Below, in pieces: positions 13,106-26,358 of a stretch of DNA of 64,000 nucleotides. The notes under the pieces were generated by a model. It searched no databases, was not told the DNA's origin, and was given only the letters and a program-made list of their open reading frames with translations. How positions within the stretch are numbered: the first letter of the stretch is position 1; each line of letters begins with the position of its first letter. Source of the stretch: Helicobacteraceae bacterium (GTDB lineage Bacteria > Campylobacterota > Campylobacteria > Campylobacterales > Helicobacteraceae); contig JBNMKJ010000002.1 in the NCBI GenBank assembly GCA_050874285.1, forward strand, positions 16,374 to 80,373, given 5' to 3'. The translations under genes and the position numbers were made by a program.

Positions 13106-14074
13106 ATGAGTGCGCCAAGCCCCAGAATATTTGCCTCGCTAAAGTCCATAGCGTCCTTTGTGCCAAGCCGAAGCGTGAGTAACGCGGAGTTTGAAAAGAC
13201 GCTAGATACAAGCGATGAGTGGATTACCAAGCGCACGGGCATAAAAAGCAGATTTTTCGCTGATAAATCCCAAAGCACGAGCGATATGGGCTACGAAGCT
13301 GCCAAAATCGCCTTGCAACGCGCGAATCTAAAAGCAGATGACATTGATATGCTAATTTGCGCGACTTTATCGCCAGATTATCTTTGTATGCCCTCCACTG
13401 CGACAATTATTTCACATAAGCTAGGCATTGAAAATAAACCCGCATTTGACATTTCTGCGGCGTGTAGCGGATTTATCTACTTGCTATCGATTGCAAAGGC
13501 GTATATCGAAAGTGGCGCGTATAAAAATATTTTGCTTGTGGGCGCGGAAAAAACAAGCTCGGTGCTTGATTTTAGCGATAGAAGCACCTGCATTTTATTT
13601 GGCGATGGCGCAGGTGCGGCTGTGGTTGGGCAGACGGATAATATCAAAAAATCTATTTTGGATATTTCCATAAGTGCCAATGGCAAATACGCGCATTTGC
13701 TCTGCACACCGCGCGATTCGACGATTCAAATGAAAGGCAACGAAGTCTTTAAACTCGCTGTAAAGACGCTTGTAAGCGATGTGAGCGAGATTTTACACAA
13801 AAATAATATGAGCGCGGAGGATATTGACTTTTTTATTCCCCACCAAGCAAACTTGCGGATTATCAACGCGGTGGGCGAGACACTTAAAATGGATTCGCGT
13901 AAAATCGTGCTGACCGTGCAAAAATACGGCAATACTTCAGCGGCGAGTATTCCTATGGCAATCGATGAGATTTATAATGATGGGCGGTTGAAAAATGGCG
14001 ATTTGTTGCTTTTGGACGCGTTTGGGGGAGGGCTGACTTGGGGGTCAAGTTTGGTTTATTTTAACGGAGAATAG
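13106..14074 (+). CDS. fabH: beta-ketoacyl-ACP synthase III
   Basis: [37 protein letters not shown]. Confidence 0.97.
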
Positions 14075-14081
14075 CGGTTTG

Positions 14082-14231
14082 CAATTTGTTCTGGGGTAAT
14101 CATTTGCGTTATTTCGGCGACAAAATTTCGCTCAATGAACGCCAAGTTCTATTTCGCTCATTTCGCGCCAAAATAACGCAAAGCACTACCGCCATTACTT
14201 CGATTGTCGTAGCTTTTGCCACGAATCTAAA
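14082..14231. repeat. 150-nt structured repeat element, copy 1
   Basis: Shares its first 27 nt and a 34-nt block exactly with 25921-26070; inner helices covary. Confidence 0.85.
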
Positions 14232-14235
14232 AAAA

Positions 14236-14332
14236 TGTCATTGCGAGATTCGGCAACGCCAAATCGAAGCAATCCAAAAAAATAAAAAAATAGATTGCCA
14301 CGATTTTGCTAATGTAAAATCTCGCAATGACG
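14236..14332. repeat. CGTC-type palindromic repeat doublet (inverted pair)
   Basis: tgtcattgcgag..gaagcaatcc followed by agattgccacg..ctcgcaatgacg. Confidence 0.85.
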
Positions 14333-14443
14333 GCGTGGGACGAATCTTTGCAAAAGTTTTGCTTCGTTTGGCTTTTGCCAAAAGTAGAGTATCATCTATT
14401 TCGCTATCGTGGGGGCGAATCAAATCGCAAATAAAGGAAATTT

Positions 14444-15001
14444 ATGGGAATCTTAAGTGTTATTTTATTGTCGTGTGCCTTAGCGGCGGACGCCTTTGCC
14501 GTGAGCCTTTGCAAGGGCTTTAGCGTGAAAAAAGTAGAGGTGCGCCACTGCGTAATCGTGGGGCTATATTTTGGCGGATTTCAGGCGTTAATGCCACTTT
14601 TGGGCTATTTCTTAGGCGTGGCTATCGGCTCATTTATTGCAACGATTGACCACTTCATCGCATTTGGCTTACTCGCGCTAATCGGGGCAAAAATGATTTA
14701 CGAATCCTTCTCACCGCAAACCTGCGAGGAAAACAGCGCGGAGTTTGGCTACCGCGCAATGCTTCCACTCGCCCTAGCCACGAGCATTGACGCTTTGGCG
14801 GTGGGCGTGAGCCTAGCTATCGAGGGTAGCAACATAGTGCTATGTGCCACGATTATCGGCGTCATCACGGCTTTGCTCTCAATCATCGCGCTAAAAATCG
14901 GCAATCGATTCGGACTATTTTTAGGCAACAAAGCCTCGCTACTAGGCGGGATAATCCTAATCGCACTGGGCGTAAAAATCTTGTGGGAACATTTGGGATA
15001 A
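14444..15001 (+). CDS. mntP: manganese efflux pump MntP family
   Basis: [32 protein letters not shown]; 6 TM segments. Confidence 0.9.
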
Positions 15002-23777: not shown

Positions 23778-25157
23778 GTGGCAAAGCTATGGGGAGGGCG
23801 ATTCGCGCAGGATAGCGCAAAAATTTTAGAGGAATTTAATGCCTCCATTCATTTTGACAAAGAGTTGTATAGGCAGGATATTTTTGGTAGTAAGATTCAC
23901 GCCCAAATGCTAAATAAAATAGGCATTTTAAACAATAGCGAGAAAAATTTTATCTTAGGCGGACTAGATAAGATTCAAAGTGAGATTGAAAATGGCGAGT
24001 TTAGCTTTAAGATTAGCGATGAGGACATTCATATGGCAATCGAACGGCGACTCGTGCAACTAATCGGCGATGTGGGCAAAAAGCTCCACACTGCGCGTTC
24101 GCGTAATGACCAAGTCGCCCTTGACACGCGCCTTTATGTCCAAGAGAAAAATTTGGCACTGCAAAATCTGTTAAAAGAGCTAATTATCACGCTTTTAAAT
24201 ATCGCCAAAAATCACACGCAAACCATTATGCCCGGTATGACGCATTTGCAACACGCACAGCCAGTGAGCTTTGCCTTTCATATCCTTGCGTATTGCTTTG
24301 CGTTTCGGCGTGATATTTTGCGCCTAAAAAGCGACTATGAGCGCAATGATTTTTGTCCGCTGGGTAGCGCGGCTTTGGCTGGAAGTCCGTATAAAATTGA
24401 TAGGGAATTTTGCGCTAAAGAGCTAGGATTTTCCGCGCCTAGTTTTAATGCGATGGATTCGGTAAGTGAGAGGGATTTCGCACTTGATTTGCTCTACGCC
24501 ATTGCGATGATTATGATGCACACTTCACGCTTTAGTGAGGAGCTGATTTTGTGGAGCAGTAGCGAGTTTGCTTTTGTAACAATTAGCGATTCCTTTGCTA
24601 CGGGTAGTTCCATAATGCCAAATAAGAAAAACCCCGATGTGCCCGAGCTGATTCGAGGCAAAAGCGGTAGGATTTATGGGAATCTAATCGCGCTTTTAAC
24701 CACAATGAAAGCCCTGCCACTCGCATATAATAAAGATATGCAAGAGGACAAAGAGGCACTTTTTGATAGCGTGAAAAATGCTACGATTTGCTTACAGGTG
24801 CTTAACGCAATGCTAAAAGAGATAAAAATTAACGCCGATTCGATGATGGAAAAGGCTAGGGTAGGGCATTTGAGTGCGACTGATTTGGCAGACTTTTTGG
24901 TGCAACAAAAGGGTGTTAGTTTTAGGGACGCTCATCATATCGTGGGAAAAGTCGTGGCAGAGGCTGAATCGCGCGGTGTGGATATTAGCGAGTTAGATGA
25001 GGATTCACTAAAGGCGCAAGATACGAATTTAGAGGGCGCAAAGGCAGTGCTAGACTTGCAAACCTCGCTAAATAGCCGTGATTCCTATGGTGGCAGTGCC
25101 GAATTGCGCGTAAAAGAGCAAATAGAAATTATGCAGGATTTTTTGGATTCATTATGA
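23778..25157 (+). CDS. argH: argininosuccinate lyase
   Basis: [41 protein letters not shown]. Confidence 0.97.
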
Positions 25158-25912
25158 GTGTAGAAAATAATGCAATAGGGGTGCAAAACAAACAGCGCGA
25201 AATCGTGGCAATGTTTGATGAAATTGCGCATAATTATGACTTGGCAAATCGCATTTTAAGTTTTGGAATCGATACGCGGTGGCGCAAAGAGGCGTGTGAA
25301 AAGGCAATAAAGTTATGCGACAAAAAGGCACTAGATATTTTAGATGTAGCCTGTGGGACGGGCGATATGATAGCGCAATGGCTTAAAAGCGCGGGCGGCA
25401 ATTCGTCTCGGACGCGACCTTCGCGGGAGGTTACAAAAGTTATTGGCATTGACCCGTCCGCTGAAATGCTTAAAATTGCGCGTCAAAAGCTACCGTCAAG
25501 CGTAATCTTACAAAATGGCGAGGCAAAGGATTTGCGTGTAGATAGCGACAGCGTGGATATTCTCTCTATCGCTTATGGTTTGCGCAATGTTGTGGAGGTG
25601 GATTTGGCACTGAGTGAATTTCATCGCGTGTTGCGCAAAAATGGCATTTTGGTGATTTTAGAGTTTAGCAAAAAGGACAACGAAAATATTTTTGATAAAA
25701 TCGCTCGGTTTTACACAAAGCGGATTTTGCCCTATATCGGGGGCTTTATCTCACGCAATTATAAGGCATATAAATATTTGCCTGATTCGGTGGAGGATTT
25801 TTTAAGTTTGGAGCAAATCGCTTCCAAACTTCGCGCCTTAGGCTTTGAAATGAAAATTAGTAAGCGATATTTTGGAAATGTTTGCTCACTTATAATTGCA
25901 CAAAAGATTTAA
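25154..25912 (+). CDS. ubiE: ubiquinone/menaquinone biosynthesis C-methyltransferase
   Basis: [46 protein letters not shown]. Confidence 0.93.
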
Positions 25913-25920
25913 TTTTTATT

Positions 25921-26070
25921 CAATTTGTTCTGGGGTAATCATTTGCGCCGTTTTCACACAAAACCACGCTCAATAGACACCAAGTCTTATTTCGCTTGTT
26001 TCGCGTAAAAACGGCGCAAAGCACTACCGCCATTACTTCGATTGTCGTGGCTTTTAGCCACGAATCTAAA
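25921..26070. repeat. 150-nt structured repeat element, copy 2
   Basis: Homologous to 14082-14231 with compensatory substitutions. Confidence 0.85.
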
Positions 26071-26081
26071 ATTAACCTTAT

Positions 26082-26287
26082 TGTCATACTGAGCGAAACG
26101 CAGTGTAGCGAAGTATCCAAATCGAGCAAATCTAAACAAATAACGAATCAATGTTACAAAAAGTGATTCAAAAAAATAAATCAAAAATCCTTATTAAAGT
26201 TTTTGCTACTTTTGGCTTTTGCCAAAAGTAGAATCCTCTCTACTTCGTCATTGCGAGGGCGAATCGCAGATTCGCGCGAAGCAATCC
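26082..26287. repeat. palindromic repeat cluster (GTCATACTGAG variant, an 11-bp hairpin, one CGTC unit)
   Basis: 26082-26118 tgtcatactgag..gaagtatcc; 26206-26231 ctacttttggc-tttt-gccaaaagtag; 26246-26287 cgtcattgcgag..gaagcaatcc. Confidence 0.8.
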
Positions 26288-26358
26288 AAAAAATAAAAAT
26301 CCGCGAATCTTTAAGCCACTAAATGCTAATCTTTTACCAAAAAATACGGAGTAGTGCG

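Follow-up and report, generated by a model that had tools for sequence, protein, structure and literature searches.

Two sequences in a 64,000-nucleotide stretch of DNA from a Helicobacteraceae bacterium (the window, at its full length) probably belong to a family of non-autonomous palindromic interspersed repeats of about 125 nt, which is MITE-like, restricted to the Helicobacteraceae and in its behavior closest to the Rickettsia palindromic elements (RPE). The family is multi-copy, and both its copy number and the occupancy of its sites differ between related genomes. The copies survive either just past the stop codons of co-oriented genes or in frame within housekeeping proteins, where they are found between domains or in loops. 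The original prediction, which was made from the letters of the window, had offered a non-autonomous mobile element or a new ncRNA as the identity of the repeat. The former is borne out by a high and variable copy number, by identical subfamily copies at unrelated loci, by orthologous sites that are empty or filled depending on the species and by covarying terminal inverted repeats. The latter is not favored because 39 of 96 copies are placed in frame in protein-coding genes and because the copy number ranges from 0 to about 100 among related species, making a free-standing ncRNA gene unlikely.

The two copies in the window and their surroundings

The repeat unit had been assigned a length of 150 nt, which is too long, as the family core comprises 125 nt in copy 1 and 124 nt in copy 2 (Table 1). 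The blocks described as exactly common to both copies were recovered, with identity over the initial 28 nt and over some 50 nt at the 3' end, and across the 98-nt interior the two copies show 84% identity (repeat family D4). Moreover, all compensatory differences that had been quoted are present, i.e., the outer helix reads TTGCGTTATTT/AAATAACGCAA vs. TTGCGCCGTTT/AAACGGCGCAA and the apical helix GAAC..GTTC vs. AGAC..GTCT. Both copies start less than 10 nt past a stop codon, as was stated before: the distance to the head is 7 nt from the fabH stop codon for copy 1 and 8 nt from the ubiE stop codon for copy 2, and the identity of both genes was confirmed by Pfam. The 3' hairpin that had been counted as part of the element does exist, yet it is a separate module carried by some copies only; elsewhere GATTCGCNTTGCGAATC or other modules are found in its place.

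Both window copies fold as a single long hairpin, and copy 1 does so on either strand. Its head CAATTTGTTCTGGGGT reads on the plus strand, and the minus strand is the better-folding one with a folding energy of -52.7 kcal/mol (z -8.07) compared to -39.1 kcal/mol (z -4.95) for the plus strand; on both strands, none of 200 shuffled sequences was as stable. Copy 1 is part of a mosaic repeat cluster between fabH and mntP, to which also an inverted pair of a different, REP-like repeat belongs. Through this cluster and into mntP one frame of the plus strand is open for 145 codons (14086-14523), so that none of its different modules contains a stop codon in this frame. No such continuous open frame runs through the second cluster (25921-26322).

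Table 1. Features of the window in the surroundings of the two palindromic elements.
Feature	Position in the window	Strand	Support or remark
fabH, co-oriented gene upstream of copy 1	13106-14074	+	Pfam ACP_syn_III, ACP_syn_III_C
Copy 1, palindromic element, 125 nt	14082-14206	-	Match of covariance model R1, G000:C2:30455-30579(-), 95.4 bits; folds
Small hairpin module TCGTAGC-TTTT-GCCACGA, then ATCTA	14207-14229		Outside the family core
Inverted pair of a different REP-like repeat, GTCATTGCGAG..hairpin..CGAAGCAATCCA	14236-14333		Repeat search (families D1/D2; pairs I4, I5, I10)
mntP-like gene downstream of the copy-1 repeat cluster	14444-15001	+	Pfam Mntp, 8.2e-49
ubiE-family methyltransferase gene, co-oriented, upstream of copy 2	25154-25912	+	Pfam Ubie_methyltran, 1.1e-46
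Copy 2, palindromic element of another subfamily than copy 1, 124 nt	25921-26044	-	Match of covariance model R1, G000:C2:42294-42417(-), 98.9 bits
Small hairpin module after copy 2, TCGTGGC-TTTTA-GCCACGA	26045-26068		Sequence, alignment

Family size, common plan and accompanying repeats

The genome from which the window is taken (G000; 1.99-Mb assembly, 50 contigs, 40.8% G+C) was searched with BLAST, nhmmer and a covariance model (R1) built from an alignment of copies (A3). This resulted in about 114 matches in all, among them about 95 strong full-length copies with a length of 122-128 nt. The copies are spread over at least 40 contigs and occur in both orientations. The statement that the element is present twice holds inside the window and fails genome-wide. 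The strand on which the head reads (plus in the window) is termed the head strand and its complement (minus in the window) the reverse strand. Read on the head strand, the copies follow a common plan consisting of a head [C/A]AATTYGTYCTKGGGT, a long stem that varies between subfamilies, an apical stem-loop and a tail ACCGCMAWTACTWSRATT[G/T]. About 20-25 nt are conserved at each end of the element, including asymmetric internal loops, and the apical (R)GAC-N5-GTC(Y) stem-loop is moderately conserved, whereas in the upper stem the sequence is free to vary and the pairing is kept. The terminal inverted repeats covary, with CAATT..RATTG and AAATTC..GAATTT in G000 and ACATTC..GAATGT and AGATTC..GAATCT in other genera. 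Both window copies are members of a subfamily that ends in CAATTTGT..TTACTTCGATTG.

A further family of palindromes, about 125 nt long and termed the sister family, has the ends GCGCGTTTGT...ATACTTCCGCGC and a similar apical AGAC-N5-GTCT loop. Examples are located in G000 (C24:33311-33480 and C1:27428-27600) and downstream of fabH in the genomes G006 and G008 (L072, L074), and in-frame copies encoding RGSIFRRFCGFSSARRGNRTDSSIDEAEREESRKSVKKTNAQ occur in CarB, NuoG and PurF. A chimera in G008 consists of the ends of the main family and the core of the sister family. In the purF gene of G000 (C8:37631-37776) a truncated head CAATTCGTCTTTAGATTCGCA lies directly before a complete copy, suggesting a nested insertion or a partial replacement at one site.

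Taken over the whole G000 assembly, 7.1% (142 kb) was masked as short interspersed repeats, each with at least two other matches, and these comprise at least five or six module types arranged in BIME-like mosaics. In many 3' flanks of the elements the small hairpin GATTCGCGTTGCGAATC is followed by RRCTAC (C7:45600-45627 and C1:46240-46269 in G000; L031:500-535). Seen from the opposite strand, this unit has the classical REP layout of GTAG followed by a palindrome, yet no RAYT gene is found in these genomes.

Range and turnover between genomes

An exact-pattern scan of 185,579 species genomes gave one outside match, a Helicobacteraceae MAG; an exact pattern is too strict to measure the range of such a variable family, and the covariance model R1 was used instead for 173 Helicobacteraceae genomes and 16 genomes of the same order outside this family. 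Within the genus of G000, 62 to more than 85 copies were found in three sister species and 0-4 copies in six other species. At least one copy was found in 56 of the 173 Helicobacteraceae genomes (1-20 copies) and in seven of 14 genera. With the same model, one large Helicobacteraceae genus and all 16 genomes from the other families gave no copy. No similar sequence was found in phage and plasmid collections. Several of the carriers are single-contig genomes and one of these has an in-frame intragenic copy, which shows that the in-frame placement is not an artefact of assembly.

The occupancy of orthologous sites changes between these genomes. Downstream of fabH, the main family is present in G000 and G007 and the sister family in G006 and G008, and the site is empty in G001. 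No element is present at site A of carB in G007 or at the purF site in G001. The site at C23:8911 carries one in G000 and G008 and none in G006. Other orthologous sites are occupied by clusters that differ in size and make-up. These changes in occupancy, the identical copies at unrelated loci and the chimera in G008 support gain, loss and replacement, i.e., an element that is mobile or was so recently. A single conserved master locus was considered as well, as the copies of low-copy genomes (G001, G024) seemed, from flanks inspected by eye, to lie all after the tag gene. This idea was dropped because the single copy of G157 sits inside a different gene.

Placement, orientation and in-frame inserts

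For the placement of the elements a census of 96 strong copies was performed, in which the in-frame class was defined by an ORF of 200 aa or more that extends for 40 aa or more to both sides of the element. By this definition 39 copies are in frame and free of stop codons within an ORF, 43 start 0-32 nt (median 8) past the stop codon of a co-oriented gene and 14 are placed elsewhere or at contig ends. The post-stop class consists almost wholly of the CAATTTGT..TTACTTCGATTG-ended subfamily. A phmmer search with the 41-aa reading of the window copy returned 23 protein clusters, mostly short spurious ORFs, and the window subfamily is therefore rarely coding.

In the in-frame class the sense strand is the head strand in 31 copies and the opposite strand in eight. 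For each orientation one fixed frame is used, adding about 42 residues (e.g., NSSLGASCGDLANFECSQTTSLVSHSKFAKNTTTSTANTRI or NSSLGASCGDLANFECSQT...). The host genes comprise carB (two sites), nuoG, priA (two copies), purF and a phosphoglucosamine/phosphomannomutase gene, and furthermore hypF, an ArnT-like transferase gene and an ABC ATPase gene. In CarB, NuoG, PriA, PurF and the phosphoglucosamine/phosphomannomutase Pfam domains flank the insert on both sides in a single frame; the inserts sit between domains or interrupt a domain at a single position, and orthologues without the insert keep the same frame.

The orientation of the elements follows the adjacent gene. Of the 47 copies with the head within 30 nt of a gene boundary 43 are co-oriented with that gene, and other repeat modules are always found on the tail side of the element. 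Replication-strand bias was tried as the cause of the orientation: in 48 of 66 copies (73%) the strand that folds better is also the one with negative skew. This proportion equals the gene-strand bias, so that the orientation follows the gene and not the replication fork, a behavior that is also predicted by a role at the RNA level.

A role of this kind would be that of a cis-acting RNA at the 3' end of mRNAs, acting in termination, in blocking 3'-5' exonucleases, as a site of RNase III cleavage or in modulating translation termination, with the spread of the element being secondary. Some such effects on mRNA 3' ends are exerted by REP, ERIC and Correia elements in other bacteria. The 43 post-stop copies and the co-orientation of 43 of the 47 near-boundary copies would agree with such a function, as would the very stable hairpin on both strands, and transcripts are known to be affected in a comparable manner by ERIC and Correia elements (PMC10969869). 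Nevertheless, we regard this explanation as improbable. A 3'-end role makes no sense for the 39 copies located within coding sequence, the mRNA strand is the worse-folding one in 75 of 75 copies, the window copies have no T-run after the hairpin on either strand, and related genomes manage with 0-4 copies. Moreover, the proximity to stop codons is imposed by the compactness of the genome: native spacers in relatives are as short as 3 nt (C23 site, G006) or about 35 nt (downstream of fabH, G001), and any intergenic insertion between co-directional genes thus lands near a stop codon. In the C23 case, the final seven codons of the gene were replaced by the insertion, and the head is directly preceded by a new stop codon. 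The geometry of short spacers leaves the constant orientation and the tail-side position of the other modules unexplained.

Structure, covariation and strand asymmetry

The covariation of the paired positions was analyzed for 67 distinct copies with a 46-pair consensus structure and 500 column shuffles. Standard pairs occupy 83.6% of the cells compared to 34-50% if the partners are slid by 1-3 columns, 36 of the 46 pairs vary on both sides, and none of the 500 shuffles matched the observed values. The covariation that had been recognized from two copies thus became stronger with more copies instead of being lost. One pair of orthologous copies shows coordinated differences on both arms, with GTAGAAAATTTTGGG/CCCAAAATTTTCTAC in G000 vs. 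GTGAAAATTTTGGGG/CCCCAAAATTTTCAC in G008. Between G000 C23:8911-9033 and G008 C173 (L089), which are orthologous, GTAG..CTAC stands against GTG..CAC and GGG..CCC against GGGG..CCCC. Covariation alone is no proof of selection on the folded strand, because such coordinated two-arm changes can arise by template switching in quasi-palindromes or by conversion by paralogous copies.

The strand asymmetry of the fold is a further property of the family. The minus strand had been proposed to be the structured one, and in agreement with this the reverse strand has the more stable fold in every one of 75 copies (on average -54.1 kcal/mol compared to -40.6 kcal/mol for the head strand). In the 75 folded copies 250 G-U pairs are found on the reverse strand and 80 on the head strand. 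If the consensus structure is kept fixed, 225 G·T pairs are opposed to 93 A·C pairs, with a binomial p of about 1e-13. Of the column pairs, 24 lean in one direction and eight in the other. The head strand is the coding, leading strand in most copies, and it is on this kind of strand that the usual deamination biases would be expected to accumulate wobble pairs. The observed asymmetry opposes this expected mutational bias, suggesting that the antisense strand is under selection.

A structured minus strand with strong covariation, an excess of G-U pairs and conserved unpaired positions might also be expected for a family of free-standing small RNA genes, or for a guide or scaffold RNA of a nuclease or recombinase, transcribed from this strand. 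We consider it very unlikely that the elements are of this type, since 39 copies lie inside ORFs, neither a TnpB nor a Y1 partner accompanies them in the genomes tested and the copy number varies from 0 to about 100 among relatives. Comparison with Rfam, which had been put forward as a check, gave no match to a known family: with Rfam 15 at the gathering threshold the whole window contains five tRNAs only, and a permissive scan of 14040-14460 returned miRNA-precursor models only, with 14-26 bits far below their cut-offs of 51-211 bits. Nor do the copies have a conserved promoter-like sequence in common, because the other repeat modules that precede them on the minus strand vary from copy to copy.

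The folded antisense strand could in principle also serve as the substrate of a recombinase, as in structure-specific recombination sites of the integron attC type. With attC sites the elements have in common the conserved structure at variable sequence, a length of about 125 nt, the position just past a co-oriented ORF, the better-folding strand being antisense to this upstream ORF, and a conserved unpaired base in the basal stem. That they are such sites has hardly any probability, as the ends CAATTYG...CGATTG/GAATTK do not match the R''/R' consensus RYYYAAC...GTTRRRY (compared by eye), as the copies, instead of forming cassette arrays, follow core housekeeping genes on numerous contigs and in either orientation, and as 39 of them lie inside genes.

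Search for a mobilizing enzyme and sequences next to the elements

Enzymes of two transposase families, PF01797 (Y1 HUH, comprising RAYT and the TnpA of IS200/IS605) and PF07282 (TnpB), were searched for in element-bearing genomes, and no partner was found, either of the RAYT type or of the IS200/IS605 and TnpB types, with which the original prediction had suggested a comparison. PF01797 gave no match in G000 and in its three copy-rich sister species (G006, G007 and G008) and none in 23 further element-bearing genomes, several of which are single-contig; control genomes scored positive in this search. PF07282 was absent from 11-12 element-bearing genomes tested, i.e., G000 and G006-G008 next to G105, G114, G128, G112, G120, G163, G011 and G019. 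It was found only in G015, a member of the bacterial family without the element, which also has a Y1 TnpA. By self-BLAST no kb-scale repeat was detected in the G000 assembly, the smallest contig of which is 9 kb, so that collapsed IS copies were possibly dropped. A regex search for an autonomous parent element composed of head, ORF and tail was noisy and gave nothing convincing. As for a MITE in the strict sense, the elements have the terminal inverted repeats, and no autonomous IS with the same ends was found.

The flanks of the 96 copies show no visible direct repeat. Three comparisons of empty and filled sites are 8-30% diverged and blurred at the junctions by neighboring modules, and the insertion points are therein not placeable to the base. 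A word GATT[CT] starts 1-2 nt past the tail in 42 of the 96 copies and 0-3 nt past it in 46, and the head is preceded by G in 53 copies and by C in none. Throughout G000, GATTC and GAATC together occur 7.7 times per kb, which is 3.6-fold above the expectation from base composition. These words cluster at the tail side of elements. The adjacent word, the strand-specific fold and the absence of a visible duplication resemble single-strand transposition of the IS200/IS605 type; membership in this group fails because its defining enzyme is absent.

For the interspersed repeat as preferred here, the following course is proposed. The elements would spread, or would once have spread, by means of a trans-acting enzyme, and this enzyme might recognize the conserved base of the hairpin on the folded single strand that is antisense to the neighboring gene. 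Insertion would often take place next to a GATTC word. Thereafter survival would act as a filter, keeping those copies that neither break a reading frame nor put the stronger hairpin into an mRNA; in the preferred reading the mRNA would carry only the weaker version of the hairpin and a stop-free frame. A narrower version, by which an unrecognized enzyme that is neither a Y1 HUH nor a TnpB protein mobilizes the element as folded ssDNA, reads the base of the hairpin, inserts it by GATTC and also moves the sister family and the chimeras, is for the time being rather doubtful.

Comparison with known elements

No description of such repeats in Helicobacter was found in the literature. The repeat family is new for the Helicobacteraceae, and the kind of element is already known. 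RPE comprise several families of about 150 bp, are inserted in frame in unrelated genes in nearly half of the cases and have no known transposase (PMC10969869). The present family resembles them in being a set of palindromes of about 100-150 nt that form several families, are scattered over a small genome, are restricted to one lineage and lack a known transposase. In both, nearly half of the copies lie in frame in unrelated housekeeping genes and add a peptide to the protein, and the rest are intergenic. This likeness is one of behavior only, and by behavior the present repeats are coding palindromes, with 39 of 96 copies in frame next to intergenic ones. The hosts differ, being Alphaproteobacteria for RPE and Campylobacterota here, and the post-stop co-oriented class, the covarying termini and the strand-asymmetric wobble pairs may set the present family apart.

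ERIC sequences (enterobacterial repetitive intergenic consensus; IRU) are imperfect palindromes of 127 bp in transcribed spacers at gene 3' ends, again with no known transposase (PMC10969869). Nearly equal length, a hairpin formed by the whole element, the location at gene 3' ends, the species-variable copy number and the missing transposase are common to both families, and also ERIC has intragenic copies, which are occasional there. The two are not related in sequence, and here 41% of the copies are intragenic and in frame and compensatory changes distinguish the subfamilies over the entire stem.

Similarly to REP, BIME and REPIN, the elements are hairpin repeats in mosaic clusters after genes with a strand-specific fold being implied, and the small hairpin with the GTAG motif on the opposite strand (GATTCGCGTTGCGAATC-RRCTAC) lies beside many copies. 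In the REP/REPIN-RAYT system the RAYT gene (PF01797) is typically flanked by the repeats, whereas PF01797 is absent in 27 element-bearing genomes; moreover, the present element is far longer than a REP and many of its copies are intragenic. The Correia elements of Neisseria are defined by a TA target duplication and an IHF site, neither of which was seen here, where the base before the head is mostly G and that after the tail mostly T. Correia elements are likewise about 100-150 bp long and have terminal inverted repeats in transcribed spacers, as is observed here, and their transcribed hairpin is a substrate of RNase III (PMC10969869).

With the palindrome-associated elements (PATE) derived from IS200/IS605 and the omega-RNA of TnpB the family has in common a hairpin specific for one single strand and no obvious target duplication, and GATTC/GAATC beside one end resembles the penta-nucleotide target of this IS family. 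The differences are that the element is one long hairpin instead of separate left-end and right-end hairpins, and that neither TnpA nor TnpB is present in the element-bearing genomes tested, whereas G015 has both and no element. As a summary, the tests that define Rfam families, RAYT-REP systems, IS200/IS605-TnpB elements and attC sites all came out negative for the present family.

Significance

Palindromic repeats inserted in frame into essential genes are best known from Rickettsia, which are obligate intracellular bacteria and hard to manipulate. The same in-frame behavior is now seen in the Helicobacteraceae, and the single-contig genomes that carry the element presumably come from cultured isolates. 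To our knowledge, the question how RPE-type elements move has been open since their description. As the copy number varies from 0 to about 100 among related species, the mobilizing enzyme can be sought by comparing gene content with copy number. Furthermore, CarB, PurF or PriA with and without the 42-residue insert offer simple test cases. The repeats are also of relevance for annotation, since the short interspersed repeats, which make up about 7% of this genome, yield spurious small ORFs, lengthen real proteins and break assemblies. If the elements are indeed mobilized as folded ssDNA, the genus would be a tractable model for how coding palindromes spread and are tolerated in essential proteins.
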